Positions 64-56,719 are shown, numbered from the whole stretch's first letter. The stretch is DNA of 63,801 nucleotides, filler included, from Stramenopiles sp. TOSAG23-6 (GCA_900128565.1; 10 parts of 10 records of this genome joined end to end with filler, not necessarily neighbours in it), one strand, 5' to 3'. A program made the numbers and translations. The notes: generated from the letters alone by a model not told the origin.

Positions 64-1891
64 CTAATTTTCTTGTAACTGTAATCCTAAATTTAATAGT
101 CTTCTTACACTGTTATCAACTCTAATAAATTTTCTAGCTACTGCATATTCTCTATCTCCATCATCATATTTAATTGAATAACAGTCACCATCAACGGATT
201 TCATAACTACTCCTGTATACCAACGATTATATATTGTGAAAAAATTAAATTTTTTTTTTTTCGATATTATTAGGGTTAGGGTTTAAAAAAAAAGAAATTT
301 GAAATTCATCATGAGAGCACGTACAAGACCTCCATATAAACACCTGACTTTTTCACCTTTTTGAAGTATCTTTGTATCACTGTATAAACCTGCTGCTGCT
401 ACAGCTTCCTGAGTTGATACAATTCGCAATTCATCCAAAAGAGCCCATCCTTCATATTTTGTTAAAAATTTTGAAAATTTTTCTGTTTTTGTTAGGTACA
501 AAATTTACTACGAAAAAAAACAAATTTCAAAAAAAAAATATTGAATTAAAAAACGCGTACAAAATCTTCATTCTTTCCAAAATATCGTAGTTCATACTTG
601 GGTCCCTGAACTGAAGTACGCATTCCAATCACTTCAGCAACTCCATCTGGTCCTTCTACTGAAGTTCCTACTGGTATTGTACGATTAAGTACGATTGGAG
701 ATCGAGAAAAAAGTCGAAGAACGCGAGATTTTTTTGTGTTTTTCGTGTTTTTTGTGGTTTTAGGGTTAGGGTTAGTAGAGTTATTATTTACAATATCCTT
801 CATAAAATTTTCTTGTTCATTTTCATTATTTGTGTCAGTTATAATTGGAGAAATACTATTGCTCACACCTTGGACTGTGGAATCCTTCATTTGATCTTGA
901 CGAATTTCGTGTTTTTCTTTTGCATTTTTAACTGCGAGGTCTCGAAATTTTCTTAATTCTTCAATTTTTCGATCTCTGCGAGTTTCGGCAGGAGAAGGCT
1001 TCGTTGGTGTAGGAGTTGGTGATTGTGATGTTTCATTAATAATTTTCATCAATCTACGAATTTCGCCAATTTCAATAGCATTGAGCTGCTCATCTATAAT
1101 ACATGTATTGTTCACATGAAAAAAAAAAACTTTTGTTAGGTACAAAATGTGCTATAAAAAAAAAATCGAAATTGAAATTGAAAAAAATGAAATATACAAA
1201 CTTCCTTAGATACTGTAGAAAGATTACATGTACGTTGCTCACTTATAAGACTACTTTGTTTTGAGTTAGTTTTGACCTTTTTCAAAATTTTCATTGTTGC
1301 AAGGTCAGAGGTATCATCAACTGTTGAACTTAACATTGTATTTGCAGCGGATTGAGAATTTTTTAACGTTGATGGAGAAATATTTTGTAATAATTTGTCT
1401 TTAACTTCGTCAAATCCTGTACCATAATTTTTTGCCCTGTATAAATTAATATCATGTAAAGACTGTGACTGTATAGCGCTTAATTGCTGATGGAGAATAT
1501 TATTTAATGTAGTTCTACCTTGCTTTTGTATTTTTTGTGGTTGTTTTGTCTTACTATTTCTTCCATTTTTTCTAGGACTAAGTGTGACTGGAGAAAATAG
1601 ACAATCACGTACATTATCACTATGTGTATCAGATGAATGGATAAGTTTTTCTATTTGTTTATTTTTAGCGGGCATATTCTCTGCAACGCTTGTCGGACTA
1701 CTGCAGAATAGACGCGAACCATCTTGAAGCTGAATAAAATCCACGGCTTTGGACCTCACAGCAAAGAATTGGCTCAACCATAAAAGTGGATTTTCTGGTC
1801 TGACGTCACTTAGTTGGGTAAAAGCATTGACTACAGCTGGTACAACGGATGCTACAAGATAACGCCGAGGAGATAGATCATCTGCAGTCAT
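64..1891 (-). CDS. Dpy-30-motif protein with C-terminal Tudor-like domains; 4 exons (1891-1198, 1102-561, 453-325, 228-64), about 509 aa
   Basis: N-terminal RRYLVASVVPAVVNAFTQLSDVRPENPLLWLSQFF fits a Dpy-30 dimerisation motif. Removing three GT..AT elements gives an open frame containing KVRCLYGGL|NRWYTGVV...YSIKYDDGDRE (Tudor-like) and ending at TAG 64-66. Confidence 0.7.
229..324 (-). mobile_element. GT-AT introner-like intron, 96 nt
   Basis: ctt|GTACGT...ttcacaatatAT|aat cgt tgg; phase 0 inside the Tudor-like domain. Confidence 0.7.
454..560 (-). mobile_element. GT-AT introner-like intron, 107 nt
   Basis: ttt|GTACGC...gtacctaac...aaaatAT|gaa gga tgg; restores frame. Confidence 0.7.
1103..1197 (-). 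mobile_element. GT-AT introner-like intron, 95 nt
   Basis: gtt t|GTATAT...gtacctaac...aatacAT|gt att; joins ORFs 1136-1891 and 546-1145 in frame. Confidence 0.7.
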
Positions 1892-2155
1892 TTTATTGAG
1901 ACAATCTAAATAGGAGAGAAAGACTCTGAAAAAAGTGATTTGAGATTGACTTCAATTTGAGAAATTTGAAAACAAAACATTTGAAAAATAATGGTATACG
2001 CTAGACACTATTAGGTATATACAGGTCTCGGTAGTATATCTTACAATATTTATGAAAAAACTATATATTTATTCAATATATATATATATAGGATGTTAAA
2101 CAAGTACAGACAACGTTCTCTTCTTTTACATTGAAGTCTTTTTTTTGTAATCTGT

Positions 2156-3611: not shown

Positions 3612-5849
3612 ATGAATCTTCAGTATGCAACAATAAAATGTCCCCAAGGTGCTAGAGAAGGTATGAATGTTGCAGTACTTGTGAACGCACAGCGTGTGGT
3701 AGTCACAGTGCCAAAAGGTATAAGACCTGGAATGCCATTTAGAGTGGCTGTACCCCGAGCCCCTCAACAGAAACGAAACTTGAGTATAAAGTGTCCTATG
3801 GGGTCATACCCAGGAAGTCGCATTCAAGTTAAAGCGCCAACAGGAGAAAATCTAGCACTCATTGTTCCACAAGGCGTCATGCCTGGTCAAATGTTTACTA
3901 TTGCGTATACACCAAAAGCGACAATGCAACGAAACCAGTCACGAAATCTTGAATATCAGCGTGTTCAGAAAGAAGCAAATGAGAATCGTAAGCTACTTCA
4001 GCGCGAATATGAAGAACGACAAAATACAATGAAAGAACGAAAACAAGACACTGAGAACCGAACTCGAGAAAGGAAAGAAAGTGCAGATCGAAGATTTGCA
4101 CTGAGACTACAAAAGGAAGAAGAAAGAAAACGAGCCCAGTACCTTCGAGAAAATGCAGTTAGAGAAAAACAACGTTTACGTAAAGAAGCAGAAGCGAAAA
4201 AACAACGTTTACGTAAAGAAGCAGAAGCGAAAAAACAACGTTTACATAAAGAAGCAGAAGCGAAAAAACAACGTTTACGTAAAGAAGCAGAAGCAAAACG
4301 TCGAGCAGCAGAGAAAAAAAGAAAAGATTTGGAAAAAGAAAAAATGGAAAAAATGTACGTGTTGTCTTTTATCATGATTTTTTCCAGATTTTTTTTTTTC
4401 ATACGAAATTTTCATAGAAAACAAAGAAAAAAACAGATTTTGAATGTGGTATCGTTGTAGTACCTTTGTTCATCATGAATGTAAATGTTTTCTTTTTTTT
4501 TAATTTTTTTTTTCTTTTTTGTTTTTTTTCTTTTTTTTCTTAAAAAAAATTTAAAAAAAAAAAAAAATTTTAATTGTATACCTAAACAAAACAATTCTAA
4601 TTTTTGAAATATTTTCCAAAATGTAGTAGACTGAGTGAAATGAAAAGGTTGGAGAGAATGTATGTTTTACTTTTTTTTTTTAACCAAAAAATCGAAATTT
4701 TTTTTTCGTACGAAATTTTGTACCTAACACATTTTTTTAGATTTTTTTGAAATATTTTTCCAAAATACATACGACAAAATGAAGTTGATAAAATAAAACA
4801 TAAATTTCCTGAAAAAAATGAAGCTGAAAAAGAAACAAATAAAAAAACCTTGAATTTTGGTTGGTCTGAGCAGACATCAGAAAAACATAATGGTCGGGTA
4901 TATTACTACAATAAGATTACGAATATATCACAATGGGAGTTTCCAGAAGAATGTCTTGACCCTAACCCTAATGTACCCTAACCCTAACAACCCCTAACCC
5001 TAACAAAAAAATATCATTTTTTTTTTTTTTTACTATAAAAAATTTGTACCTAACAAATTTTCCAAAAAAAAAAAAAAGAAAAAAATATTTTTTTACATAC
5101 ATTTTGAATCGAAAAAAAGTTCTATTTCTTCTACTGGACAACAAGATTTGGAAAAAAAGAAGTCTATAGTTACAATACATACTAATCGTTTCTACAATAG
5201 TATTCAAAACAACCCTAACCCTAATGCTAATCGGTTTCATAATAGTATTCAAAAAAGTCGTATTGGCAGTGCAAACATTTTGAATGATTCACGGAATCAC
5301 GTACAAATAGCGAAAAGGTTTCATAAATCTCCAAGAGACGTTCGTGTAGGTTTTTTTTTTCATACGAAATTTTATAGCTAATATTTTTTTTTTTTTTTTT
5401 CATACGAAATTTTATAGCTAATAATTTTTTTTTTATTTTTTTTTTTGTTGATACGAAATTTTATAGCTAATAATTTTCTTTTTACTTTTTTACTAAAAGA
5501 AACATACATATATATATATATATTGACAATACAGGAACATTTTCACATATCTGATGTGAATTTCGTTGCCGCGCGCTTTCATGTATGCTTTATTTTTTTT
5601 AATTTCGAATTTTTTTTTTTTTGATTTTCGTACGAAATTTTGTACCTAACGAAAACTTTTTTTTTTTTTTTGAAATATTTTTCCAAAATACATAGAAGTT
5701 CTAATGATATACGTAAGCGTGTAGTTGATGCGTGTAAAAATGTATCTAAATTTCATCGTTGTCCAGAAAATGTGAAAAAATATTCATATAGTGTAGAAGA
5801 TGTTTCAAAACGATTTCATCGAGATCCAAAATGTTTGTTAAAATACTAA
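3612..5849 (+). CDS. Multi-exon protein: two N-terminal CP-x-G..G..V.VP.G..PG repeats, coiled coil, WW domain, C-terminal RFH repeats
   Basis: Introns at 4355-4626 (internal structure uncertain), 4660-4770, 4973-5102, 5346-5534 and 5583-5693. The spliced frame contains LNFGWSEQTSEKHNGRVYYYNKITNISQWEFP (WW) and ends at TAA 5847-5849. Confidence 0.65.
4166..4298 (+). repeat. 33-nt coding tandem repeat x4 (KQRLRKEAEAK)
   Basis: aaacaacgtttacgtaaagaagcagaagcgaaa repeated four times with few substitutions. Confidence 0.9.
4660..4770 (+). mobile_element. GT-AT introner-like intron, 111 nt
   Basis: aga at|GTATGT...ttcgtacgaaattttgtacctaac...ccaaaatacAT|a cga caa; near-consensus copy with AT duplicated. 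Confidence 0.8.
5583..5693 (+). mobile_element. GT-AT introner-like intron, 111 nt
   Basis: ttt cat|GTATGC...aatacAT|aga agt restores an RFH-R repeat. Using the AG 2 nt downstream gives CAT AAG TTC TAA (stop). Confidence 0.8.
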
Positions 5850-5961
5850 ATAAAAATTCATGAAAATTTCAGATTTTTTCAGAATAAAAATGAATGAAAA
5901 TTTCAGATTTTTCCAAAATTAAAATGTTAAAATTAAAAAAAAGTTGAAATTGAGTTTATTA

Positions 5962-6774
5962 TCAAGGTTCAACAAAACGAATGTACTCTTTTTTTGAAGG
6001 CAATTCCAAAATGGAAACTTCACCAAACGTTTTTTCGCCAGATTTTGTGGAGACTCCAGGTAACAAAACTGCTTTTTCACCAGGGGTCCAATCGGCTGGT
6101 GTTGCTAGCATTTTCTGTTTTGTCAATTGTAAACTATCAATAACTCTTATGATTTCAGAAAAGTTTCGACCGGTACACGTATTCTGAAGGATATTACAGA
6201 AAAAAAATCGTTAGTTAAAAACGTTTTTAGGGTTTCCAAAACAAAAAAAAATTCAATTCAAGGTTTAAAACAAAAAAAAAATGATATTCAATCTTTAAAA
6301 CGTACTTGCAGGATAGGTAAGCATTAACTTAATCTTTCTATCTGGAGATACAATAAATACTTTGCGTACTGTCAAAGGCAAGCCAACCTCGTCAATATTT
6401 TCTTGGTCAAGCATATCGAGCGAATGAGCGATGGCCCGCGTCGGGTCAGCAAAAATTGGGAAAGTTGGTTTGTAAGTTGTAGCAGCATAGATGTCTTTGA
6501 TCCAAGCTACATGTGAACTAGCATCATTACAAGATAATGCTGCTAGTTTCACACCTCTTTCATCAAAAGAAGGCTGAAGTTTCGCAGCAGAACCCAGCTC
6601 TGTCGTACACACAGGTGTAAAGTCATCAGGATGAGAAAATAAAATTCCCCACGTTGGACTACCTTTAGCATCACTAAACACTTGATACAGTGATAATTTA
6701 CCAAGGCTAGATTCAGCAGAGAAATCCGGGATCTCATCGCCAAGTCGAAGTGTTTTACGGTCAGAAACTGCCAT
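5962..6774 (-). CDS. PRDX6: 1-Cys peroxiredoxin (Prx6 type); exons 6774-6306 and 6176-5962
   Basis: FSHPDDFTPVCTTELG active site; spliced junction gives YPASTGRNFSEIIRVIDSLQLT; C-terminal ATPADWTPG and LPSKKEYIRF. Confidence 0.92.
6177..6305 (-). mobile_element. Family intron with GT...GT ends, 129 nt
   Basis: gca a|GTACGT...aactaac...cagaatacGT|gt acc ggt cga; this register gives the conserved YPASTGRNF. Confidence 0.75.
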
Positions 6775-9523: not shown

Positions 9524-9639
9524 ACGTATTGTGAAAAAATATTTCAAAAAAAAAAAACTCAAATTTGTTAGGTACGAAATTTTTTTACGAAAAAAAACCA
9601 AAAAAAAAAAATTAAATTAGAAATTCATATAAAACATAC
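9524..9639 (-). mobile_element. Family element with GT...GT ends flanked by a GT duplication, 116 nt
   Basis: gt|GTATGT...gtacctaac...ttcacaatacGT|ccg gaa; only 2 upstream exon nt visible before the gap. Confidence 0.6.
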
Positions 9640-9641
9640 AC

Positions 9642-9740
9642 NNNNNNNNNNNNNNNNNNNNNNNNNNNNNNNNNNNNNNNNNNNNTTAATTAATTAANNN
9701 NNNNNNNNNNNNNNNNNNNNNNNNNNNNNNNNNNNNNNNN
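9642..9740. other. Artificial contig linker (N-run TTAATTAATTAA N-run); also at 19359, 29056, 38721, 48353, 57952, 59415, 60878 and 62340
   Basis: Identical spacer with stops in all six frames; flanking contigs are ordered by decreasing length. Confidence 0.97.
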
Positions 9741-9830
9741 NAAAAAAATCTAAAAAAATTTGTTAGGTACAAAATTTTTTTACCAAAAAAAAAAAATATA
9801 TAAATTAAAAATTGAGAAATGAAAACATAC

Positions 9831-11420
9831 GTGCAACATCCCTCAATAAGTCTGCGTTCTGAGTAAAGTTAGAAAGTAGCATGCGTACACGAGCAAAATA
9901 TTCAGTAGATGTTCCATGTATTTTAGAAAAATATTTCAAAAAAAAAAAAATTTTTTTTGGTTTAGGTACAAAATTTTTATAAAAACCAAAAAAAAAAACT
10001 TTCGATTTTTTTTTTTCGGTAAAAAAAAAAAAAAAGTAAAACATACATCATAACGATTAAATATCGCTTTTTCGATCTGTTCTGATAAATATTGGTAATC
10101 ATCTGATTGTCCACCATTTAATTTCTTTTGAAACATTGCGCGTGCCTTCTCTCGACGAGCTTGTTGATCTGCACTGCCTGCTGGTCGGGAAGGTTGTACT
10201 ACTGCCTCTCGTTTTGCTTTTTTATTCGAACGATTATCATGACCATTTTCATTTTTTCTTTTTGTTTTTTGTTGTACAACAGGAGACTCTAAAACTTGCT
10301 CTTTCCAATATCCTCGGAGGGCTTTCGCCATTAATTTAACACTATGTATTTTATAAAAATATTTCAAAAAAAATTCTAAAAAATTTGTTAGGTACAAAAT
10401 TTCGTACAAAAAATAAATTCATACAAAAAAAAAATAATACATACATCATTACTGTGTTTTCTCAAGCTATTAACATGTGACATTACACCAGTCTGGGCCA
10501 AATCTTCAAGTGTAATACCTTGAGTCTTCCACATTTTCTTCATTGCTCGTTTCACTCCCTTTTCGTCACATGTATAGTGAAAAACACGAAATCACATAAA
10601 AAATCGTTAGGTACGACATTTCGTACGAAAACCAAAAAAAAAATTTAGTTAAAAAATTGAAAAAAAAATAAACCATACATGGCACACAAGAGGCAGCTGT
10701 TTTTAAAGCATCGCGTAGAGTAATGAGTTTTTGCCTTCTGTCTTTACTTTCAAGTTTTCTCTTTGCCTCTGCAGCTTCTGCTTCTGCTTTCTTGATTCGT
10801 TTTCGTTCCGCAGCTTTTTCTTGCCTACGTTTCTTTGCTTTCCTCTTATTTTCCGCGATTCTTTTTTTTCGAATATGTATTTTTCAAAAATATTTCAAAA
10901 TTTTTTTACCAAAAAAAAAAAAAATGTTAGGTATACATTTTTCAAAAAAAAAAATAAATTCAATTTCAAATTTAAATTTAAATTTAAATTTAAATTTAAA
11001 AAAATAAAACATACATATTCCTCTTCAGAGTCACTTGACGAAGAACTAGAACTACTTGAACTACTCGATGTATTTTGAAAAAATATTTCAAAAAAAATCT
11101 AAAATTTGTTAGGTACAAAATTTCGTACGAAAAAATAAATAAATTCGAAATTGAAAAAAAATAAAAAAAAATCCAAAATTTGTTAGGTACAAAATTTCGT
11201 ACGAAAAAAAAAATTCAATTTCAAATTTAAAAAAAAAAGCAAAACGTACATGAACTTGAACTACTCGATGAAGAACTTGAATCAGATCTTGGTCGTTTCA
11301 ATGTTTTCTTTTGACCATCATCCATTGGCATATTCGAACTACTCTTTTTCAAATTATTATTTGAAGCATCAAAATCAGAATCATTTTTATCATTTTCATC
11401 ATCGGAAGATTTTTCATTTA
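9831..11420 (-). CDS. TFIIS-like protein (Ser/acidic region, coiled coil, TFIIS N-terminal and TFIIS central domains); partial, at least 6 family introns
   Basis: Removing GT..AT elements 11249-11068, 11014-10875, 10678-10570, 10444-10344 and 10046-9916 gives ITLEDLAQTGVMSHVNSLRKHSND|SVKLMAKALRGYWKEQV and IEKAIFNRYD|GTSTEYFARVRMLLSNF. Confidence 0.75.
10344..10444 (-). mobile_element. GT-AT introner-like intron, 101 nt
   Basis: aat gat|GTATGT...aaaatacAT|agt gtt aaa; inside the TFIIS N-terminal domain; the adjacent AG would frameshift. Confidence 0.85.
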
Positions 11421-11509
11421 TTTCAAAAAAAATCTAAAAAAAATTGTTAGGTACAAAATTTCGTACGAAAAAAAATCGATTTTTTTGTTTAAAAAAAAAT
11501 AAAACATAC

Positions 11510-12596
11510 ATTGCTCAAACTTCGCCAAATCAATATTTGTCATGTTATTTGGTACAACGTCACTATTGGAAGACCCTCGTACTGAATCTGGAAAATTCAC
11601 GAGGTATTTCATTTCATTATTGCTACCCATTGAATTCGTCTCCCATTGCTCAAACTTTGGCGAATCAGTATTTGTTGTGTTATATGATACTAAATCACTG
11701 TGAGACAATCGTATTGATGGCCTTGGATTTGAATTAGAATTCTTTTGATGTGGAAAAGACAAACTACTCTTCCTACGTAATGGATAATTCAAGCTGAATA
11801 GAGAACTCCGTTTCCAAGTATTTGATTTAGGCGACGGACTTCTATTATGAATATGAACAGAATTTCGCGCAACTGCTTTAGTTTGGAAAGCACTACTAGG
11901 GGCAAGAGAATTTCGTGTCATTGTGTTATTTGGCCAATTGGTAAGAGTTAGAGAATTATTTCGCGAACCTTTCGTAGGTGAAGTATTAGCATTTGGGAAA
12001 TCAATGACAAGAGAATTTCGCGAAAATACAGCCGGTTTTCCAGGGATACTTGTACGCAAACTAAAAAGAGAGCCTCGACTATTATTAATGGGAGCAGCTA
12101 AATTACCATATAAACTGTGACGGTAAGAGACGTCTCCTAAAGTACCTTGAAAGTTCATATCAGAAGTTGATATTTTTGACCCCCGACGCACTGCCAAGTA
12201 ATCACTCAGAGACAGTCGTTTAGAACTACTGTGTTTTGCCCTTTTACTTTGAAATTGAGTGCGAGGACGCTTTGTAGTCTGTTTATTACTTTGGTTTGGA
12301 TCAATTTGTCTACTTTTACAACGCTTGGACTCGTGGGCATTAATACACCGAATAGTTTTATACCATTGCTTTTTTAAACGTGCATCGATTGGTGGTTTAA
12401 TTTTACCACCTACTACCCGAGCAGGTGCGCGATAAGTAACACCACAACCATACACACAGTTCACAAAGAACTCCCCGGGACTACCCGGAACGGGGTCAAA
12501 TTTGCGTTGTCTTTTCTTTCGAGCTCCAACGATAATATTTGACTTGGATAGCGACCTTTTATTTGAATGTGCGACACCTGGGTTAGGCTTTTCCAT
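11510..12596 (-). CDS. Putative zinc-binding (C-x3-C...H-x4-C) protein with Ser/Asn-rich tail; 3' end unresolved
   Basis: FFVNCVYGCGVTYRAP...WYKTIRCINAHESKRC; frame ends at a family 5' splice site (caa t|gtatgt) at 11509. Confidence 0.6.
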
Positions 12597-13111
12597 GATT
12601 TGTTACCAAGGAGAACACTGTAAATTGAATCTTGAATGGTGAATATCTACCCTGAATTCATTTGGGACTCGACAAGGTTTATTGGGAGCGCTACTCTGAT
12701 CTTATTACTAGTTGAACGTATAGAACTTCGTTTGCGGAGTTGTAAAAAACGTTATTGGAATTTGGAAAGATATCGATATATCGCTACTACACGAAATCTG
12801 GTCGGCTCTTTTTACACCCAGTGCGCTTCATTTGATTGGACGGACGGCCGCACACTTTAAAGGTCCACACCTGCGTCAACTCTGTCCTCTCCTTCGATAC
12901 GTAAAGTTTTGCTCCCCGTTGAAATCTAGAAACAGAAACGCCTAGCGCTGGATACACCTAGTATTGACAATTGCAGTATGGTTATTTGCTCCAGTATAGC
13001 TGTATTCCGATATATGTATTAGCCGAAGATCGAATCACTTCGAAGAAAGATTCTAGCTATTGATATAGAAGGTTAATTCGAAGTTTTTGCATACGCAGGA
13101 ACAAAGGTGAA

Positions 13112-14059
13112 ATGGTTCAAACCGATAAAACGCTGAAGCCTATAAATGGAACATATAAGCCAGTTAAAAAGAAGTCAAAGAGAGAAGGGCGTGGGATGGC
13201 TAAAGACCGTACCTTTGTTCAAATTCCAAATTCTAATGAAGTGTACATCCACTGTGTTAATGGCTGCGGAGTGAAGTATAGGGTTCCCGCAATACGTGTT
13301 GGTTCGGAAAGTGAAGGTTACGTGTATAAAGCTGCGGCAGAAGAATCCGAGAAGTTACAGTGGCGTACAATACTCCGCCGTTTGAACGGACATGAAACTC
13401 AACGTTGTAAATTGCGTGATAAAAGTAAAGACAAAGGAACGCGTCATCGGAATAAAAACAAGAGAACTCAACTTAGACAAGATAAAGAGACGTCTTCGAA
13501 GTTAAAGAAACGAGGCTGTACACATCTTGCTCCTTCAAATATCGTAAGCGTTTTAGATTCTAGTGGTCTAACGATAAAGCGACCAAACCATAGTGCATCT
13601 TTTCCGCCTAACAAACGATTGCGAATGAACCAGCCCAGAGGAAGCTGGCAGAACAATATGAATAGTTTATCTACTAGTATGTTTAACAACGCGGGCTGCT
13701 TTATCCCAGTCGCTAATAACATCGAATTGAAGACACAGGTACCGAGCTCTTCACTTTCAAGCGCTGCTCAGCAACTGATATATATGTCTTCGAACCCAAT
13801 TAATAACTACAATCCTCCTCAAAATGTTTATGGAAACTCACACGCCGTTTCTCAAGTATTAACGCAAAGTATGAGAAATGGACAAGTGAGATCAAATAAC
13901 TTTAACAATAAGATTCTAACAAATCATTTAAATCTACCATCTGTGTCAAATCCACAAATTATGAAAAACGAAAGTTATTTGGCATTGCAAAGATTTATTG
14001 ACTCTGCTAGCGTTCCTTCTCCTCAATTTTCTTGCTACAATACTATGCTTAAAAAATAA
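13112..14059 (+). CDS. Paralogue of 11510-12596: C-x3-C...H-x4-C domain, basic linker, Asn/Ser/Gln-rich tail
   Basis: YIHCVNGCGVKYRVP...WRTILRRLNGHETQRC; 315-aa intronless ORF. Confidence 0.65.
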   Translation: MVQTDKTLKPINGTYKPVKKKSKREGRGMAKDRTFVQIPNSNEVYIHCVNGCGVKYRVPAIRVGSESEGYVYKAAAEESEKLQWRTILRRLNGHETQRCKLRDKSKDKGTRHRNKNKRTQLRQDKETSSKLKKRGCTHLAPSNIVSVLDSSGLTIKRPNHSASFPPNKRLRMNQPRGSWQNNMNSLSTSMFNNAGCFIPVANNIELKTQVPSSSLSSAAQQLIYMSSNPINNYNPPQNVYGNSHAVSQVLTQSMRNGQVRSNNFNNKILTNHLNLPSVSNPQIMKNESYLALQRFIDSASVPSPQFSCYNTMLKK

Positions 14060-14209
14060 GGAAATACCAAATCCCCTTTCACAAAAGATGAACGTAGACG
14101 AGGATTTGATTGTAATTTTAAAAAACGTCGAATCGGATAGTTTCTTTTTCTTTTGCATTATAAAATTTTAATCATAGTAAATTAAAATTTATAATAACAA
14201 ATACACCAT

Positions 14210-14713
14210 TTAATAATTAGAAACGTTCCCTCCAATTGTCCTCATAGCACCAGATCCATCTGCAATGTCTAGAGTAATTTTATTAGATTCTCCCTGAAAT
14301 GTTTTTCGTAGGTGAGAGTCTAATGTTGCTGGTGGGTTCATTTTTTTCCTTTCTACGCTGTTATTCTCTCCCGAGAAACGTTTGTTATAGTAGAGCCGAT
14401 TAGTTGTAATATTTTCTGCTGCTTGGGGATTCAATTTTTCCCTTTCTTTGCTGGGCTTCTTTAGAGTCGTTTCTGTGTGATTCTTTGGAGTCTTTTCTTC
14501 AGCAGATCCTTGGGATGTATCTGATACGTCATCATTAGCAGATTCGCGAGACTTATCTGCATCTTTAGCATCGTTTTCGGGTTTATCTCCAAGTGTTTTA
14601 GCGACCTCATCGGCGGCTTTCTTTGCAAGAACTTTTCCCTGATTAGTGACATGATCAACAACCAGATAATTTCTGCAATACATTAACTTTTGTAAAAATG
14701 AATTACTAATCAT
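14210..14713 (-). CDS. Hypothetical hydrophilic protein or 3' exon
   Basis: 167-aa ORF with protein-like composition, no recognised motif; start uncertain. Confidence 0.35.
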   Translation of the reverse strand: MISNSFLQKLMYCRNYLVVDHVTNQGKVLAKKAADEVAKTLGDKPENDAKDADKSRESANDDVSDTSQGSAEEKTPKNHTETTLKKPSKEREKLNPQAAENITTNRLYYNKRFSGENNSVERKKMNPPATLDSHLRKTFQGESNKITLDIADGSGAMRTIGGNVSNY

Positions 14714-14739
14714 ATAGTGCTGTTTCTATTGTACGATCT

Positions 14740-16980
14740 TCGATAATAATACAAAATATTTTTTCTCGACTTTGCCAATGTCATGATTGTGGTATACCAA
14801 CTTTGTTATAAATAAATTAACAGTGATATTATGACAAAATAAATCATTATATATATTGTGCAAGGAATTCCAAATACACAGCTTCGTGAATTTTTTCTTC
14901 CGCCACTAGATTATTTATACAATACGATAACTATGCTGAAAATAAATAAACAAGGGTTTTATTTTATTATCATGGTACCTTTTTTATTAATACGAAATAC
15001 TGCACATGATGTTTGTAATATGTCAATATTGTTACAGATAAGTAAAAATAATTCTTGACAAAGGTTGCTTTACTATATACTCACGTGAGATAAATACGAA
15101 ATATTTGATGTCATGATTGTGATATACCAACTTTATCATAAATAAATTAGCATTGCTATTGAGAGAAAATACTTAATCAAAGATATTGGTGAGAGAGTTA
15201 CGAAATATCCCATATAATTTATGCAATACATTAATTATGCTGAAAATAAATAAACAATAGTTTTATTTTATTATCATGGTACCTTTTTTATTAATACGAA
15301 ATACTTGACATGATGTTTGTACTATGTCAATGTTGTTACAGATAAGTAAAAATAATACTTAACAAAGGTTGCTTTACTATATACTCACATGAGGTAAATA
15401 CGAAATATGTAATGTCATAATTGAGATATTCCAACTTTCTTATAAATAAGTTAACATTGCTATTATGAGAAAATATTTTATTATAGATATTGGTGAGAGA
15501 GTTACGAAATATGCAATACGATATACTGAATATCTCAAAAATGTTACAATTGAATACACAGTAATAATATAAATAGAATACACTATGAAAGTATTGTCCT
15601 CGTAATAAATATCAATTACAGAATATAATTTATGCTATACATTAACTATGGTGAAAATAAATAAACAATGGTTTTATTTTATTATCGTGGTATCTTTGCT
15701 AATAATACGAAATACTTCACATGATGTTTGTAATATGTCAATATTGTTACAGATAAGTAAAAATAATACTTAACAAAGGTTGCTTTACTATATACTCACA
15801 TGAGGTAAATACGAAATATGTAATGTCATAATTGAGATATTCCAACTTTCTTATAAATAAGTTAACATTGCTATTATGAGAAAATATTTTATTATAGATA
15901 TTGGTGAGAGAGTTACGAAATATGCAATACGATATACTGAATATCTCAAAAATGTTACAATTGAATACACAGTAATAATATAAATAGAATACACTATGAA
16001 AGTATTGTCCTCATAATAAATATCAATTACACCATACAATTTATGTTATACATTAACTATGGTGAAAATAAATAAACAATGATACTGCCGCATATCTCAT
16101 TGTCGTATTGTCTTTGTCACTAATACGAAGTACTTTATATATTGATTGTAATATAGAAACGTTGCTCCAAATGAGCAGATGGCAAAAACTATCGAATTAT
16201 GAAATTAGCAGAGATCGGTGTATAAAATACTTTAGTTAATGTTTTACATATATCAACAATGCTAGAAATGAATAAGCATACATTAAAAAAATACATTACT
16301 GTGGGATTGAGATTAATAGAAGACACGCCATTTGATATATGCAATAAATTAAAGTTGTCCAAAATAAATAAATAATAAACGTCGACGAAGTTGTTTTCTC
16401 ATCTGATCTCTGATAAAAACAAAATACTCTTTTTCTATATAATGATTGCGATATGTCAACTTTAATACAAATAAGTAAACTACGGTAATCTCCAATAATT
16501 TATCGCCGTAGTTTCTATGATAATAATAGCAAATGCACAAGCATATAAAGATTGTAATGCGTCAACTTTGATACAAATAAGTAAACAGTCTTATCCTTCA
16601 TTGACTTATTACCATAGTTTTTATAATAATAATACAAAATACGGTACCACAATTTAAAGATTGCGATATGTCAAATTTGGTACGAATAAGTGAACGATGG
16701 TACTATCCAATACTTTGTTGACATAACTTCTATAGTAATAATATCTAATACAGGATATAACGATTGCGGTATGTCAACTTTGGTACAAATAAGTAAACAA
16801 CAGTATTGTGCAGTGACTTATTACCATAGTCTCTATATTGATAATAATAATAAATACTCTTTTATAGCCATACCTCCGAGAGAGAGCATATATTGATTGC
16901 GATGTGTAAACTTTGCTACAAATAAGTAAACTACGGTACTCTTCAATGATTTTTGCGATAATTTGTATAATAATACCAAG
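14740..16980. repeat. Degenerate ~105-bp satellite-like array with a ~411-bp higher-order duplication
   Basis: Recurring GATTG(C/T)RATATGTCAAC...AAATAAGTAAAC-like core at about 14783, 15008, 15113, 15310, 15417, 15721, 15828, 16443, 16550, 16659, 16762 and 16894; 15310-15720 nearly identical to 15721-16080. Confidence 0.75.
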
Positions 16981-35215: not shown

Positions 35216-35324
35216 ATTTATCATTGTACAAAAAAATGGTACAAATCTCACACACAAAAATTTCAAATTTTTTTTTTTCTGTTAGGTATGAAATTTCGTA
35301 CAAAAAAAGAAATACTTTTTCGTT

Positions 35325-41700: not shown

Positions 41701-44060
41701 TCATCTAGAATCAAAATCATGTACATTAAATTGTGACGCGAGGCGTAATTGCTGCAGTTGAAGCGTCATGGATTCCACAACCCATATATCTTCACTACTC
41801 CACATAGTCATAGATGACTCTAATTGATCAGCATATTCTTTGTTGTTTCTAGCAAATTTACGCGCTTCACTAAGTGAGTTTAGTAAACCTGTATGAGTAT
41901 TACATGATATATGAGCAGCAATTTCTGTTGTAGCCAATATGGCACCAATACAATTGGCTCCTCGAGTTTTTGTCAGAGTAACAAGAATATTCGTTAGTCT
42001 CGGTAAAAGTGTAGCATGTGCAGTACAAAGTGCATCTGAGACCATGGGTTCATCTTCAATAAGAGCTGGTAAAGCAGGCAATAAAAAACACAATGGATCA
42101 ACTTTTGAAACATCTTGAAGTTTTGATCTTTTTGGGTTCCAGACAAAAAGAAACGGCATTGTTCTATTTACGTGTCCCCGTAATGAATTTGTTTCCTCCG
42201 CCAACCAACGTCCAATTGCTCTAATCGCGGCAACTAGTAAATGTTCTATCGTAGGTGAAAAGACATTTTTACAAACTGAACTTTTTCCGTTCTGCGTTGC
42301 TAACGCATTTTCCCGTTTTTCAAAAACTTTGGCTGCCTCTGATATGAAATCAAATACTAATTCCGCACAATGATTAAGTGTTTTTAGTAAATTATACTGA
42401 GCACCACTAGGAAGAGACGTCCATAGTTCATCACTATTGATATTTTCTTGAATGTTTTCATCATCATTATCTTCTTCTCCGCATAAAAATAAAATAACAA
42501 TCTCCATCGCTGCAAAACAAAACGGTAACATTGTAGTTACACGATTCTCCTGTAATGCGTTTAATAACTTCGGAGGCTCTGCGACGGCAGATACCGTAGA
42601 TTCGGCGGATGTACCATCTGGAACGGGTCTCATAGGTCGTTGCTCTACATTTATAGAATCCCCATCCAAATTGGACTTTTCATCATCTTCTTCATTTTCC
42701 GCTCGGGTTTTCATTATTTTTTCATTTGTTTTTCGCTTTCGCTCCTCCCAAAGCTTAACACTTACAGCGATACTTTCTTCAGATAGAGGATCTAATAAAG
42801 TCTCGGCATCATGTACATGTGAAAGAATATTTACATTCATTATTTTTTGTTAGATACATTTTTTTCATAGTACAAATTTTGGTACAAAAAAAATTACATT
42901 CAATTTTGAAAACGCACATCAAGCACCAGTTTCAAATCTATTGCTACTAATCTGAACCACAATTCAATGAACTGTCCCTTTTGTTCTAGATTAGCTTCTA
43001 GTATCCAAGATTGACCGCATTTTTGTAAAAGAGTTAGAATTAAACATAATGATTTATCTCGAATTCGGATAGGTAAACCACGAATTCTCAGTAATTGTAC
43101 GAGACCACTTCTCAAATTATATGCCCATTCTTTATATGTATGTTTGATTAAATGAATCGGTATAATTTTGACTAAAGTATCCAGAATAGCAAGAAAGGTC
43201 CATTGCATTGGCGTTTCAACATTTGCAAATATAAACACTACCTCATTGAATAAAGAAATGGGCGATTCCGCGCCTTTTGAAAATTGTTCAAAAGAACTGC
43301 GTTGTAATACATCTAATAACAGCATTGAGCCAATAGTGACAACTTCCTGACTTAAAGTATTATTTTCACTAACATTGTTCTCAGGAGATTTCGTATTCAT
43401 TTTATCACCAGAGGATTTCTCTTCCTTTTTTGGATTCTTCTTTCTATTGCTTGATACAGTTATGTTTTTAATCACACGTGATATACTGATAATAAGTGCA
43501 TTAATCGCAGCTGCATTAAGCACACGAAAAGAACAAGCAGGTGAACTTGAGACTAATGAGTTAAGACATACAAAGCAGTCACGCAATATCAGCAGTTCTT
43601 CTTTACAGGTAACAGGTGAATCGTGGACGATTTGTACAATACCTGGAATTATATCTGAAAATAGAGAAGCCACACGTTTATCCTCAAAAAACATAGAAAG
43701 AATATTCAGGGCTGTAGTTTTCTGTTCTTTGTCCTTACTATTAAACATTCGTCGTAGGAAAACTGGACCCATCGCTTTTAAAAGCTGACGGCGCACGTTT
43801 GCCAGAGGGACACCAAACTTGGACTGAAATGAAGATGAAGACTGATCAGTATTGGAAGTATCTGTATTCTCACTTGTACCCGTTGAAGATTCACTTAAAA
43901 ATGGCAGAATATACTTTGCAGCGAAAAGTAGACCGGCAATCTTATGTTCATCTGTACTTCCGCGAAGAAGAAGCAAACACTCTTTGAGAGAGGTTTTAGA
44001 GGCCACGACATTTGGTACTTTTGGTCGTGTCTGAGGCTCTTCATCCTTCGTGCTTCCCAT
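41701..44060 (-). CDS. NCDN: Neurochondrin family protein; GT-AT intron 42917-42811
   Basis: LKECLLLLRGSTDEHKIAGLL, AMGPVFLRRM, AIRAIGRWLAEETNSLR and FLLPAL; gat|GTGCGT...gtacAT|gat joins the ORFs in phase 0 (3' boundary could be 6 nt upstream). Confidence 0.75.
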
Positions 44061-47319: not shown

Positions 47320-48352
47320 ATGGTAGTCCTTAGCGTGGCAATCGTTACGAAAACTGGGCGCTTGCTCTTGTCTCGACAGTTCATGGATATGACTCGTATT
47401 CGCGTGGAAGGGCTCATGGCAGCTTTCCCAAAGTTGCTTGTCTCTGCTTCAACAAAGCAGCATACGTACTTTGAAACGAATGAGGTTCGTTATGTCTACC
47501 AACCGTTGGAAAATATGTATCTAGTGTTGTTAACTACAAAATCTAGTAATATTGTTGAGGATTTGGAAACATTACGACTCTTATCAAAAGTCGTACCAGA
47601 TACTTGTTTATCCGGTAATGTTTGGCTGAATGAGGAGGTCATTGGCCAGAACGCGTTCGAACTTATATTTGCGATTGATGAGGTTGTTACTTTTGGTGGT
47701 CATCGAATTCAAATAACGTTGCATCAAATAAGAAAAAATTTACTCATGGAATCTCAACAAGAGATGGCTTACGAAGAAGCCCTTGCTGCTAAAGAAGATG
47801 ACGCCCGTGAAGAGTCAAGGAGAAAGGCGGAAACAATAAAACAACGTAAGCTCGATGCAATGGTCCGTAATCAGGGAAGAAGTTCTCCAATGAAAGGTTT
47901 TGGAGGTGGCTTTGGTAACTCAAACAGTAGTGATGGATTCGGTAAGGAAAGTTCTTCAATTAATCGACAAGTTATTCCAAATTACCCTTCGAGAAGCCAA
48001 GCTTTTGAATCTGATGATGAAGAAGAGTATAAACCAAGAAAATCTCGTAAAGGACTTTCACTTGGGAAAAAGAACAAGAAGACCAATTCAGCACTTAAAG
48101 CGTTAGCCGCAGAAGAGGTACGTTTTTATCCTGAATTTTTTACGTAAATTTGTTTTGTACTACATTGTACTACATTTCATACATAACGTTATTTTTTTTA
48201 CTATTTTTACAATACAGGGAATTAATCTTGATCAATCTAAGCCGATGCGTGGGAGAGGAAGTGTAAAGAAAGAACAAATTATTGTCGAAAATGTCAACAA
48301 GGGTGACGTAGAAATTTCCGTGCATGAGAAAATTAGGGTCGCGTGCAACCGT
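47320..48352 (+). CDS. ARCN1: Coatomer subunit delta, partial; family intron 48118-48217 with GT-AG ends
   Basis: MVVLSVAIVTKTGRLLLSRQFMDMTRIRVEGLMAAFPKL...QHTYFETNEVRYVYQPLE...SNIVEDLETLRLL. Confidence 0.93.
48118..48217 (+). mobile_element. Degenerate family intron ending aatacAG (canonical register), with AG duplicated
   Basis: gag|GTACGT...aatacAG|gga att; fixes the register shared with the aatacAT copies. Confidence 0.75.
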
Positions 48353-48505
48353 NNNNNNNNNNNNNNNNNNNNNNNNNNNNNNNNNNNNNNNNNNNNTTAA
48401 TTAATTAANNNNNNNNNNNNNNNNNNNNNNNNNNNNNNNNNNNNNNNNNNNNTTTTGTACCTAACAAATTTTAGTTTTTTTTTGAAATATTTTTCCAAAA
48501 TACAT

Positions 48506-48965: not shown

Positions 48966-51281
48966 TTACTCTTTATCTTCATCAAGCAATAATACTGAAT
49001 GCTGACCACCGGCACCAATCATTAATACATCACCCGAAATACCATTTACCAATCGAGGTAATTTTTCATCAGATTCTCGTCCATGTATTTTGGAAAAATA
49101 TTTCAAAAAAAAAAAAANTGTTNGGNACAAAANTTCGTATGAAAAATAAATTCGAAATTGAAAAAAAATAAAATATACATGGCCTAGTTGTCCCATATCT
49201 CCAAAACCCCAAGTATACACCGCACCATCTGTAGTTAATGCCATCGAGTGATTTGCACCACACGCAATAGCCTTTGATCGAATAGATGACTCACCAATAT
49301 TTACTATTATTGGATTAGGTTGTCCATATTTCAAAACATTTAGAGGCGACAAACCCAATTGACCACTATCTCCACGTCCAAACGAAAACACTGTACCATC
49401 TGCAGTCAAGGCTAGTGAATGATGAACACCTCCATCAAATGCAACAGCTTTGCCATGTAAAGCCACATCAGGTAATGCAACATGAGCAGGCATAATTTGT
49501 GGAGAATTCTTATTACCAAGACCTAGTTGACCATAATTATTGAGACCCCAAGCATACGCTCGACCACTTCGCATAATCACAAAAGTTCGATAACCACAAC
49601 AAAATACGCGATGTACTTTTCGATCTTGCATCTCACATTTTGCTATTTCTTTTTTTGACATTGTTTTATTTCGCTCTTTATTAGCTAATTTATCTGATTC
49701 ACTTTCAACTCTCTTCCGAAATCCAACTCGATATGGAGCTAGACCATTTTGTTTGTGTCTCTCACTAACTTTCCGAGCTAACTGTCCATGTTCACCATCC
49801 CCCCACACGGCAAGATTGCCTTCTTCATCTAGAGCACACGTATGATGTGCCCCACTAGACACTTGAATGATATGATTATTCATACAAGCGTCTTCTAAAG
49901 GCATTCTTATAGGTCGTGATTGCTTTTCATACTTATCCATCTGATTTTTTTTAAAGCCAATATATCCATTACTATCTTTATACGTACCCCAAGTCCATAC
50001 ATCACCACTAGCCGTCAAAACAACTGTATGACAATCTCCACACTCAACTTGAACGACTATACGTCCTTTGAGACCACCACCGACAATACCAGGAACAGAT
50101 TCTCCACCTGGATACACATTATATTTACGATATAAACGTAAGTAAAGTTCATCAATGTGACCACCTATCTTATATTTTTCAACAATTTTAGTGATTTTCT
50201 TCAAATCTGCTTTTTCAGGAGCAAATTCCGAATAAAATGCCATTAAACGTTGTATAGGATCGCCATTTGAATCACGACCAAGTGCCTCATCATCATTACA
50301 ACCCCAAGTATAGAGTACCCCATGTGCAGAAACAGCAGCGCTATGTATTATGAAAAATATTTTTTTAGTAAAAAGAAATGTTAGGTATGGNGTTTTCATT
50401 AAAAAAAAAAAAAAAAATTGATGATGAAAACGTACATGTAATCCGCCAGCAGCAACATAAGCTATTTTAGAATCATTTTTGTCAAAATATGAAGTTAAAA
50501 CCTGACGAGGTGTTAGTTCTGCCATTGAACCATCTTCGTGGAGAGACTTGCCGTGACCTAATTGGTCACAGTCACCACTACCCCAAGAATATACGGAACC
50601 AGAATGAACAGCAGCACCCAAGTCCACAAATTTCTCATCATTTGTTTTTTTCATTTTTGTAGTCACTTCACTAGAGCTACACTCACTAGCATTATTACTT
50701 GAATCGATTTGTTTTTTATCTACTTTTCGTCGTTTTTTTGACCTTGGGACAGCAGAAGGTAACACAAAATCAACGTCAAATGAGCGTTTTTTTGTAACAT
50801 TGGAAGCCTCATTTTCTTTTTTGTCAGTTGAAGTAGTAGCTGCATTAAAAACTACAGAAGAACCCCCGAAAGACATTGTCCCACCTGCACCAAGAGTGAA
50901 ACCCCCACTTGAAGCAGTAGTTGTTACGTTAGCAGAGGAATCAAAAGAAAAGCCACCAGTCGTTGCTGTTGTGGTGGCATCAGTAGAGCCGAAAGTAAAT
51001 CCAGCAGTTGAGTTACCATTATTCTGAATTTGAGCACTCCCACCAAACGTGAATGCACCACTATTTTGTGAAGTAGTATCTCCTCCACCAAAGTTGAAGG
51101 AAGTCCCACTGGTGGTAGTTTTTGCATCTGCAGAAACAGTGCTTTTATAACCTTGGCGTTCTGCTCCGCAGCTTATACATTTAATACGCTTTGCGTCTCT
51201 ATTTATAGTATTACAAACATGGCATTGCCAGTCACCTTTTTTGCGACCAAATTTAGCGAGGACCTCAGCACTCCACCCCAT
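48966..51281 (-). CDS. RCC1: RCC1 (RanGEF-like) with N-terminal RanBP2-type zinc finger and FG repeats; GT-AT introns 50435-50343 and 49178-49083
   Basis: GDWQCHVCNTINRDAKRIKCISC; FNFGG/FTFGG/FTFGS repeats; RCC1 blades WGSGDCDQLG, WGCNDDEALGR, WGTYKDSNG and WGLNNYGQLG. Confidence 0.85.
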   Translation of the reverse strand: MGWSAEVLAKFGRKKGDWQCHVCNTINRDAKRIKCISCGAERQGYKSTVSADAKTTTSGTSFNFGGGDTTSQNSGAFTFGGSAQIQNNGNSTAGFTFGSTDATTTATTGGFSFDSSANVTTTASSGGFTLGAGGTMSFGGSSVVFNAATTSTDKKENEASNVTKKRSFDVDFVLPSAVPRSKKRRKVDKKQIDSSNNASECSSSEVTTKMKKTNDEKFVDLGAAVHSGSVYSWGSGDCDQLGHGKSLHEDGSMAELTPRQVLTSYFDKNDSKIAYVAAGGLHVRFHHQFFFFFLMKXPYLTFLFTKKIFFIIHSAAVSAHGVLYTWGCNDDEALGRDSNGDPIQRLMAFYSEFAPEKADLKKITKIVEKYKIGGHIDELYLRLYRKYNVYPGGESVPGIVGGGLKGRIVVQVECGDCHTVVLTASGDVWTWGTYKDSNGYIGFKKNQMDKYEKQSRPIRMPLEDACMNNHIIQVSSGAHHTCALDEEGNLAVWGDGEHGQLARKVSERHKQNGLAPYRVGFRKRVESESDKLANKERNKTMSKKEIAKCEMQDRKVHRVFCCGYRTFVIMRSGRAYAWGLNNYGQLGLGNKNSPQIMPAHVALPDVALHGKAVAFDGGVHHSLALTADGTVFSFGRGDSGQLGLSPLNVLKYGQPNPIIVNIGESSIRSKAIACGANHSMALTTDGAVYTWGFGDMGQLGHVYFIFFQFRIYFSYEXLXXTXFFFLKYFSKIHGRESDEKLPRLVNGISGDVLMIGAGGQHSVLLLDEDKE
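49083..49178 (-). mobile_element. GT-AT intron, 96 nt (in frame, hidden inside the ORF)
   Basis: ggc cat|GTATAT...aatacAT|gga cga restores GQLGH|G; contains a few N bases. Confidence 0.85.
50343..50435 (-). mobile_element. GT-AT intron, 93 nt (in frame, hidden inside the ORF)
   Basis: tta cat|GTACGT...atacctaac...aatacAT|agc gct restores VAAGGLH|SAAVS; the AG 2 nt downstream would frameshift. Confidence 0.9.
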
Positions 51282-54520: not shown

Positions 54521-54554
54521 CGTTGATTTCTTTTATTTTTCTTTGGTTTAAAAA

Positions 54555-56719
54555 TTAATAAAGTTTCACCAAAGTGCATAAATCGATCAGAGTATTTGAA
54601 GGTATTTCCCCATTCAGTGCACTCGCCGTACCATTTTTCATCCAAAAAAGAAGTTTTTCACTTGTTTCTTTGTATGCTTGTTTTCGCATCGCCTCCAGAG
54701 TAACTTGATCAAAATCTAAAAAACTCCCTGGAACTTCATTGGGCACAAATCCTAACAGTTTCACATGAGGAAATTCATAACAAGATTGGCGAATTTCAAA
54801 TGATAGTAATGTACGTTGCTGTGTTACTTGCTTATAAAAATTCTGTCATGGGTAGAAATATGGTTGCTAGTGTTGTATAATGTTAGTACAAGATTAGGTT
54901 AGGGTTAGGGTTTAGGGTTGTTGTATAATGTTAGTACAAGATGTTTGACATGTAAAAATTTAAAAAAAGAATTGCTAGTACTGATACGGATTAGAATAGA
55001 ACCTAAACGGTTAAACCCTAACCCGAATGTAAAAATTAAAAAAAAAAAATGCTAGCTAGTACTGATACGTACTAGAATAGATAATCCATCTACACTTGGG
55101 GGAGCGTCTTGGCTTGTGAATTTTTTATACTCTAAAAAAGGCTTACAAGGAACACATTCACCCAGTGGATGCATTATTTTTGTGCCAAACATATCCAATA
55201 TTACATACACAATAATTATGTTTGAAAAATGGATATAACTTGTCCTGTATTGTATGTTGTTGCAAAAATATTTCAAAAAAAATCTAAAAAAAAATGTTAG
55301 GTACAAGTTTTCGTACGAAAAAAAAATCGAAAAAAAAAAACATACATTAATTGTGTCACCAATAAATTGAAAGCCAGAATGTTTCATTGATTGTAAAAAG
55401 GACATTGATGAATGAAACCAAGAAGAAGAACTTTTATTCTCACTCCTTATGTGACTATTCTCATTTCCATAGAATTCATTGTTTTTTTCTATTTTTGTAT
55501 TCGGTACACTAAATTGAGCTTGAAGATTTTGTTCAGATCTTTCATGCATATTTCCTTCCGTGCAACTTAACCAGTGGTTTGATTTTGGTATATTTTTGGG
55601 AGTTTTATCACACACGATTTGTGGTACAAACGAATTTATTTCGTCTAATAAAAGCACCAGTATCGTGAAAAATATTTGAAATTTAAAATTTCATTAGAAA
55701 CGAAATTAAACAAAAAATGAAGGTAAAAAATCATGATAAAAACCCTAACACTACAAAACATGATTAAAACGTACAAGAAGGGTGTCTGCGCCAGATCTTA
55801 TCGCTTGTACAATAGGTGTATTGGTTAGAATACCTCCATCAACAAATTCTATATTACGAACTATATGTGGATAAAATAATGGTGCAATAGCACTGCTAGC
55901 AAATATACCATCTATAATATCTTCATCTTTATCAGTGAACCAAACTGGATATATCGAGAATAAATATTTTGGTTTTATAAAATATTTTGTTAGGTACAAA
56001 ATTTCGTACGAAAAAAACATCGAAATTGGTGAACATTCAATTTTGAATTGAAAACTTACACGAGGAAGACCAACAGGTGTCGCGGAAACATAAAGTGAAA
56101 TATTACTTTCAAAAATTTTCTGAGGATGTACCCACTGACGGTACAAATCATGGCTTTAATAATTATCTCTAGATATATACATTTCGTAATAGTGAGTCAA
56201 ACGATTTATGAAAAAAAAAATATTCTGAGTTGATTTAAATAATAATTTTTGAGAAAATTTCACTTACCCTGGACTCGCATCACAAAACCCGCCATGTTCA
56301 AAGAAAGCAGAACCCATACTGACACTATCTGCTTTATCTAAACAATCGATTCCTAGTGCTGAGTTTATTTTTGACGACGACTTATAAATATTGCTTGGAC
56401 CCTTTATAGCTTTCCAAAATGAAGCGGCTTGACTAATCCCTTTCGAGCACTGATCTTCCTTATTAAATTGTCCTAACATTCCTGCTTGTAGTGCACCGAT
56501 ACTTGAACCAGTAATTATTGACCAAGAATTCCGGAGTATTTCATTTTCACAAATGGCTTGCAACTGGCCTAGTTGAAATGCACCTTTGGACCCCCCGCCA
56601 CTCAAGACTAATCCAACTTTCCCCTTTAGTGTTGCAGCTCGAAAGTGTTTCTCAAATATTTCACCAATAACAAGTTGGAATACACATAGAAGTATGAATG
56701 ATAAACGTACCGTATGCAT
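54555..56719 (-). CDS. Secreted patatin-like phospholipase, multi-exon (introns from 56267, 56059-55949, 55774-55658, 55345-55245, 55072-54843)
   Basis: LVLSGGGSKGAFQLG, GSSIG, ASSAIAPLF and FVDGG; 3' end of the first intron unresolved; probable 1-nt error near 55161. Confidence 0.75.
55658..55774 (-). mobile_element. Family intron with GT...TG ends, 117 nt
   Basis: ctt|GTACGT...ttcacgatacTG|gtg ctt gives GADTLL|VLLLD in phase 0. Confidence 0.6.

Follow-up and report, generated by a model that had tools for sequence, protein, structure and literature searches.

The window analysed here, a stretch of 63,801 nucleotides (nt), filler included, from Stramenopiles sp. TOSAG23-6 (GCA_900128565.1), carries protein-coding genes interrupted by one family of short related elements, which begin with GTAYGT and mostly end in AT. 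The host genes include those for an RCC1 protein, an ABC transporter, a peroxiredoxin, a carboxylesterase, a PH-like protein, a protein with a TFIIS-N domain and a patatin-like protein, among others. The window consists of separate contigs chained together, with N runs (around a 12-base linker with stops in all frames) at 9642-9741, 19359-19458, 29056-29155, 38721-38820, 48353-48452, 57387-57432, 57952-58051, 59415-59514, 60878-60977 and 62340-62439.

The DNA is eukaryotic and AT-rich (GC 26-41% in 2-kb windows), and the standard genetic code fits its genes. The S-adenosylhomocysteine hydrolase (SAHH) encoded in the window shares 92% identity with a EukProt protein and 74-78% with named proteins of stramenopiles (Cafeteria, Phaeomonas, diatoms, oomycetes), which identifies the organism as a stramenopile; a diplonemid origin was rejected on the same affinities. 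The accessible part of a report on MAST-4A single-cell genomes gives their GC content as 33.9% (PMC5269757), similar to that of the window, which is a resemblance only. Near-identical DNA is present in 2024 seawater metagenomes and in a small DNA data set of 2015, possibly that from which the window came, and near-identical sequence also makes up small shares of two seawater metatranscriptome runs.

Anatomy and abundance of the element

The branch-like motif GTACCTAAC occurs 31 times in the window against 0.25 expected, and none of 100 shuffles reached 31. A profile built from 12 copies gave about 40 further significant matches in the window. Reading every motif or profile match together with its flanks produced a census of 44 elements, of which 31 are complete, contig ends truncate 10 and three have no clear 3' end; the first-pass annotation of this DNA had described roughly 45 related inserts. 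The elements are 90-270 nt long, and the copies in genes are all sense-oriented. Their shared layout opens with GTAYGT and T-rich spacers; a 10-bp palindrome, TTCGTACGAA, then leads straight into GTACCTAAC, and a T-rich tail precedes a 3' motif, which reads ..GAAATATTTTTCCAAAATAC or ..TTTCACAATAC plus two bases (the AATAC + 2 nt type). In most copies 33-52 nt, mostly T, separate the branch-like motif from the end. All 31 complete copies begin with GT, mostly as GTATGT or GTACGT, in keeping with the extended U2-type 5' splice-site consensus, and these two starts distinguish two subfamilies. The CTAAC-type branch motif with its T-rich tail is likewise that of U2-type introns, as a sequence motif only. 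Among 21 copies 88-116 nt in length, the median pairwise identity is 67% (range 51-93%), the T-rich spacers diverging most, and tandem or nested doubles are found at 11068-11249, 35951-36118 and 5346-5534.

Many similar copies in one genome, each an intron in an unrelated gene, are the mark of introners, and the family has this pattern. Its abundance beyond the window was gauged by comparing positions 9742-19358 with four of the ten runs listed by a run search, namely the DNA runs X1 (the possible source sample) and X3 (a seawater metagenome) and the RNA runs X6 and X8. In both DNA runs the depth of bins within elements is about 1e3-1e4 times that of unique bins (from summed contig depths, a rough guide), which suggests that each genome holds thousands of copies. 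The RNA runs, too, contain element sequence whose flanks are foreign. At 18341-18435 (plus strand), a complete GT..AT copy of 95 nt preceded by CT, contigs that stem from other copies lose their match precisely at 18340/18341 and 18435/18436; in DNA and RNA contigs alike the repeat ends exactly at the frame-derived boundaries. At least ten contig ends fall inside element copies, and the repeat is therefore what fragments the assembly. Beyond what the first-pass annotation had described, the family is an introner-type repeat, probably in thousands of copies, whose putative cut sits at a fixed place in its motif.

The SAHH gene (21234-22742, minus strand) has neither the element nor any other intron, in contrast to the several in neighbouring genes, and strongly expressed genes may escape the element. 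A locus search based on SAHH returned 80 loci, the best of which has 79% DNA identity and the size of a transcript, and no relative's introns were readable from them. The 22-nt element core had no exact match in a metagenome contig collection.

The excised unit and its 3' end

The length removed was examined in 25 copies by looking for the 3' offset at which long frames stay open to either side. Of 24 testable copies, 20 have their best frame class, out of three, when removal runs from the GT exactly to the motif end (binomial p = 6.6e-7), and seven more copies are in frame. The four formal misses are 29462-29557, 32564-32653, 10875-11014 and 55254-55345. The last two are open in two frames: 10875-11014 (minus strand) is a complete GT..AT copy of 140 nt whose downstream side is the one open twice, and the complete copy at 55245-55345 (minus strand) ends in ATACAG, or in AT at 55254, with both ends in frame. 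The complete GT..AT copy at 32564-32655 (minus strand, 92 nt) is in frame only from a GT 2 nt upstream of its GTATGT. Long conserved open reading frames (ORFs) flank nearly every copy on both sides.

Homologous proteins fix the boundaries at five junctions (two in RCC1, one in peroxiredoxin and two in the ABC transporter), and together with the reading frames they support the excised unit. The RCC1 gene carries two complete GT..AT copies on the minus strand, one of 93 nt at 50343-50435 (GGLH|SAAV) and one of 96 nt at 49083-49178 (GQLGH|G), and all eight aligned orthologues lack exactly the 31 and 32 residues, respectively, that these encode, as had been expected from the RCC1 repeats. In the 1-Cys peroxiredoxin gene, exact removal of the diverged 129-nt GT..GT copy at 6177-6305 (minus strand, preceded by AA) scores best against a profile of 60 homologues. 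In the ABC transporter, exact removal of the 100-nt GT..AT copy within the transmembrane domain (30072-30171, minus strand) scores 418.1 bits against a profile built on 131 homologues, compared with 405.1 for the only nearby in-frame GT-AG pair. With the same profile, removal of exactly 92 nt at 32330-32421 (minus strand, GT..AT, preceded by AC) scores 390.9 bits, compared with 387.6 for plus or minus one codon. At the TFIIS-N junction proposed earlier, a Pfam Med26 match (profile positions 10-33 of 52) ends at most one residue from the exon end (10445) that precedes the complete 101-nt GT..AT copy at 10344-10444 (minus strand). The PH, Tudor and WW junctions are placed by reading frame only.

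Related proteins and gene models were also sought. The RCC1 and peroxiredoxin exons, used as queries against a set of 5.8 billion proteins, found nothing above 40% and 57% identity, respectively. Among proteins of the same species only P0361 was found, a public ab initio model and not a transcript, which is 99% identical to the ABC transporter and matches the window at 29454-32265 (minus strand). Six in-frame pieces of real exon are missing from it as false GT-AG introns; it also places a GT-AG pair around 30072-30171 and runs through 29462-29557 into a stop.

At the position fixed by the motif, the last two bases of the 31 complete copies are AT in 23, AG in four, TT in two, and GT and TG in one each, a non-AG end in 27 of 31 where U2-type introns have a 3' AG; seven partial copies with a clear 3' end add five AT and two GT. 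The earlier count was 24 AT, six AG, two GT and one TG among 33. An AG lies between the branch motif and the inferred end in 12 of 25 copies, often 10-13 nt past the motif, and none does in the remaining 13; in several copies, including 18341-18435, there is no AG within 30 nt downstream of the end either. Where an AG lies 2 nt further on (at 5693, 10344 and 50343), its use collapses the upstream or downstream open frame at all three sites, as previously claimed, leaving 7/50, 5/134 and 304/14 open codons compared with 55/51, 49/135 and 304/403 for the motif end.

The gene at 3612-5850 (plus strand) holds members of both kinds. Two end in AG, a long one with a GTAG end at 4355-4626 (in frame, 247/40 open codons) and one made of three tandem core pieces with an ATACAG end at 5346-5534 (in frame, 114/29; also found as a tandem repeat). 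Three complete copies end in AT, at 4660-4770 (111 nt, with an internal AG 13 nt past the branch motif), 4973-5102 (130 nt) and 5583-5693 (111 nt, the copy with the frame-breaking AG at 5693). The coexistence of AG- and AT-ending members within one gene indicates that the last two bases do not matter to where in the motif the cut would fall, and this fixed place (with AT, AG, GT or TG) argues that position is set by the motif and that AT itself is not what is recognised. Outside the family, an intron-like gap at 56154-56267 (minus strand) starts with GTAAGT, lacks the family core and has an in-frame AG end 114 nt on, from which ordinary GT-AG introns seem to coexist with the family.

The other complete GT..AT copies placed by frame analysis lie, on the minus strand, at 229-324 (96 nt, preceded by TT; in frame, 60/54 open codons), 454-560 (107 nt, preceded by TT, exact excision being the best frame class), 1103-1197 (95 nt, with an AG 9 nt further on that is likewise in frame), 9916-10046 (131 nt), 10570-10678 (109 nt) and 11068-11249 (182 nt, a tandem double also detected as a tandem repeat), and at 35951-36118 in the carboxylesterase gene (168 nt, with two branch motifs) and 42811-42917 in a neurochondrin-like gene (107 nt, diverged). 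On the plus strand they lie at 18569-18669 in the sequence for the PH-like domain (101 nt, preceded by GT), 18805-18902 (98 nt, ending TTAT, where a 6-nt repeat lets the boundary slide), 19067-19179 (113 nt, ending ATAT) and 19551-19689 (139 nt, in frame with 28/410 open codons). Flanks and frame together placed a 100-nt family-like intron of the AG type, ending ATACAG, at 48118-48217 (plus strand), and a diverged 117-nt GT..TG copy in the patatin-like gene at 55658-55774 (minus strand).

Contig ends account for most of the remaining copies, which were recognised from profile matches and flanks. Complete elements that have lost an adjoining exon at a contig end are found on the minus strand at 9524-9639 (ending ACGT, upstream exon lost) and, by flank reading, at 38823-38918 (..ATACAT) and 60983-61080 (ending ACTT), both without their downstream exon. 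Cut copies comprise 5' parts at 9742-9830 (minus strand) and 19300-19358 (plus strand), and 3' parts ending in ATACAT at the contig starts 19459-19484 and 48453-48504 (both plus strand) and the contig ends 28995-29055 and 57860-57951 (both minus strand), as well as one ending in ATACGT at the end of the window (63746-63801, minus strand). Two element pieces lie outside coding sequence, a 3' part at the window start (1-62, plus strand), antisense to the 3' end of the adjacent minus-strand gene, and a core fragment just past the stop codon of the carboxylesterase ORF (35279-35312, minus strand); they are possible non-intronic insertions with a bearing on how the element moves.

Several other repeats are present. 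Telomere-like TTAGGG/CCCTAA runs occur inside introns and even in coding sequence (as Asn-Pro repeats), at 255-285, 755-780, 4955-5010, 5210-5225, about 54950-55050, about 55730 and about 62070, and CCCTAA-type runs make up the 5' part (4973-5010) of the element at 4973-5102. The gene with five family introns also holds a coding tandem repeat at 4165-4298 (33 nt, 4.1 copies, 97% matches) that encodes a Lys/Arg/Glu-rich repeat. Tandem repeats at 14913-16081 and 16437-16857, with periods of 304, 411 and 106/215 nt and matches of 90-96% and 70-77%, lie in a region devoid of long ORFs.

Possible modes of removal and insertion

We put at roughly 0.6 the probability that the elements form an introner family whose 3' end, mostly AT, is defined by the motif and which the major spliceosome removes. 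A short non-coding mobile element would have inserted, sense-oriented, into coding exons of many unrelated stramenopile genes, and the major spliceosome would cut the pre-mRNA before the G of GTAYGT, with the yeast-like GTACCTAAC as putative branch motif. The 3' cut would fall exactly two bases past ATAC, those bases being mostly AT and less often AG, GT or TG, while AGs between the branch motif and the cut point would be ignored. Choice of the 3' splice site would then proceed with no need of an AG and be set by the motif or by the distance from it. The more specific proposition that the major spliceosome routinely ligates exons after a non-AG dinucleotide, at a site placed by the 3' motif (AAUAC + 2) and not by AG, we regard as an even bet. 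The suggestion in the first-pass annotation that the spliceosome of this organism accepts AT is supported in its excised unit, in the non-AG end of 27 of 31 copies and in nearby AGs being of no use in frame; spliceosomal removal from RNA, and GT-AT termini in the 19 copies that follow an exonic AT, are its probable part.

Several observations weigh against this reading. Because exonic AT precedes 19 of 31 copies, GT-AT and AT-AC removal give the same product there. To our knowledge, a G(+1)/U(-1) pair is not that of GT-AG or AT-AC introns. The ABC transporter copy at 29462-29557 (minus strand), a complete element ending ACTT, is out of frame when cut at the motif end, and no variant tried at this junction gave a recognisable second nucleotide-binding domain. 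Three copies lack a clear 3' boundary when read with their flanks, all on the minus strand: 11419-11509 (no 3' motif), 28824-28889 (a 5' part with a duplicated branch motif) and 55982-56059 (GTAAGT start, with a nearby AG out of frame). Rfam has no match in the window and there is therefore no small nuclear RNA (snRNA) in it. Contigs from the RNA runs X6 and X8 (150-370 nt, depth 2-8) cover parts of exons only, with none bridging an element among the pieces listed and no RNA joint across an element among the rows listed, a result that speaks neither for nor against splicing. The same RNA runs hold the element joined to exon flanks, which means that unspliced RNA or DNA is present in them.

The terminal dinucleotides could instead be AT-AC, the intron starting 2 nt upstream of GTAYGT, ending after ATAC and being removed by rare U2- or U12-type splicing. 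Of 31 copies, 19 follow an exon that ends in AT (8 of 25 follow a CAT), compared with an AT before only 9.8% of all GTs in the window, so in 19 of 31 the excised piece can be written as AT..AC with an identical mRNA, and A(+1)/C(-1) is a known workable pair. The other 12 copies have no upstream AT, and most of these are still in frame at the same excised length. At the peroxiredoxin junction, where the flank is AA and the element ends in GT, a cut at the GT gives the Ser found in 55 of 60 homologues, whereas a cut 1-3 nt upstream, including the 2 nt required here, gives a Cys found in none of the 60. The conserved GTAYGT would moreover fall at +3 to +8, out of 5' splice-site register. U12-type introns are marked by 5' RTATCCTT and by a branch motif at 10-26 nt from the 3' end; the copies here start with GTAYGT and lack a U12-type 5' motif, and their branch-like motif, at 33-52 nt, is too far from the end. 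The peroxiredoxin junction, the constant register of GTAYGT and the 12 copies that no AT precedes together favour a 5' cut at the GT, and AT-AC termini appear unlikely. We consider equally unlikely a structure-guided, possibly non-spliceosomal removal in which paired intron ends define the cut, as in euglenids, hemistasiids and Amoebophrya, for which the accessible parts of two reports offer precedents (PMC7789003, PMC12621601). It would account for several non-AG ends (AT, GT, TG) at one fixed position and for the short direct repeats that straddle most boundaries, and the ends (AT)GTAT/ATAC(AT) can indeed pair, with 4.8 expected end-to-end pairs compared with 1.8 when 3' ends are shuffled (23 copies). 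On the other side, five of seven GTACGT-type copies have about two expected end pairs or fewer, several coming near zero (those ending at 11249 and 36118 have more than four), and there is no compensatory change, copies that start with GTAC still ending in ATAC. The structure-guided classes also lack, as far as the available text describes them (PMC6221363, PMC12621601), the strong U2-type 5' site, the T tracts and the branch-like motif that every copy here retains.

Ordinary GT-AG splicing at nearby sites, giving slightly different proteins or leaving the elements partly coding, is what standard gene finders presuppose and what the P0361 model shows, with its GT-AG pair around 30072-30171 and its read-through of 29462-29557, and a few copies do have an in-frame AG nearby (1103-1197 at +9; 55245). 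This GT-AG option lies 13 bits below exact removal in the ABC transporter, the same model deletes the six pieces of real exon, the RCC1 and peroxiredoxin junctions have no in-frame AG solution, and 13 copies of 25 have no AG past the branch motif, several with none within 30 nt downstream; we hold it to be very improbable. No more probable is excision at the DNA level, as in ciliates, or that the interrupted genes are dead or assembly artefacts. The AT..AT direct repeats and GTAT/ATAC inverted ends do recall transposon-derived eliminated sequences, and the assembly was made from amplified, fragmented DNA. Against this, the boundaries are not the TA of ciliate-type eliminated sequences, independent seawater metagenomes contain the elements at high depth, and DNA contigs end at elements, with no exon-to-exon joint among the rows listed. 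The standard genetic code and the stramenopile protein affinities likewise speak against this reading, as do the long conserved ORFs that border nearly every copy on either side.

The AT dinucleotides also bear on how the element arrives. Upstream AT and 3' AT are not associated (15/3/8/3, Fisher p = 0.65, in 29 rows of which one, 5346, has a mis-set 3' end), and a target-site duplication is therefore not supported; copies with other 3' dinucleotides are mostly unmatched to their upstream flank. The inverted ends are short (GTAT/ATAC, 4-6 bp, the 6 bp including AT). The 3' AT seems to belong to the element itself, which would have a preference for sites just after (C)AT. Such a pattern could come from insertion that makes no duplication, as in reverse splicing, or from a transposon with a strong site preference.

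Relation to known intron systems

If non-AG ligation is true, it would have let a single introner give rise to thousands of GT-AT introns in genes that still keep ordinary GT-AG introns, and second-step or 3' splice-site recognition (U2AF1, Prp8, Slu7/Prp18 or an snRNA) would be altered in a way unreported in this lineage. Confirmation of the junctions by transcripts would establish a natural system of thousands of near-identical introns that combine a canonical 5' site and branch point with a non-AG 3' end; such a system would suit clean tests of 3' splice-site choice and would extend mass non-canonical splicing to stramenopiles. For such genomes gene models are systematically wrong, P0361 being an example in its deletion of real exon pieces and its read-through of an element. 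The family, which the first-pass annotation did not recognise, is absent from the literature searched, as are GT-AT introners and introners of MAST-type stramenopiles, subscription papers and supplementary tables being outside that search.

The comparisons that follow draw on the accessible portions of the papers cited. Introners have been described in marine protists including Micromonas, Aureococcus, Chrysochromulina and Symbiodinium, and also in Alternaria, with GY-AG (or AT-AC) ends (PMC9860276, PMC12130899). The present family resembles them in its many short sense-oriented copies in unrelated genes, in the restored frame and unchanged mRNA length, in the marine protist host and in the thousands of copies, and differs in the non-AG ends of 27 of 31 copies, in giving no support for a target-site duplication and in inverted ends of 4-6 bp. 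Surveys of introners begin from annotated introns, and families with unfamiliar ends are dropped unless supported by RNA (PMC12130899); surveys built on GY-AG annotation can in this way miss whole families.

Among systems with mass non-canonical introns, Amoebophrya A25 and A120 have introns with no conserved terminal dinucleotides, with inverted repeats of 8-20 nt and with direct repeats (PMC7789003). Repeated intronic elements, non-GT-AG ends, direct repeats at the boundaries, pairable ends and a marine protist host are common to both, whereas in the window family the GT is invariant, the 5' site and branch motif are yeast-like, a single 3' dinucleotide dominates and the ends pair weakly. 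The introns of euglenids and hemistasiid diplonemids have no U1-complementary 5' site and no conserved branch motif (PMC6221363, PMC12621601); they share with the family variable non-AG borders and a possible pairing of the intron ends, and are unlike it in that the window copies have a U1-type 5' site (the invariant GTAYGT) and a conserved branch motif. In the tunicate Fritillaria borealis, 3' AU ends exist and are bound by diverged U2AF subunits within a modified U2 spliceosome (PMC13326754). Non-AG 3' ends including AU, the major spliceosome (here on the favoured reading) and a proposed link to transposon-derived introns (PMC13326754) are the points of likeness, and the family in the window is set apart from that system by a canonical 5' end.

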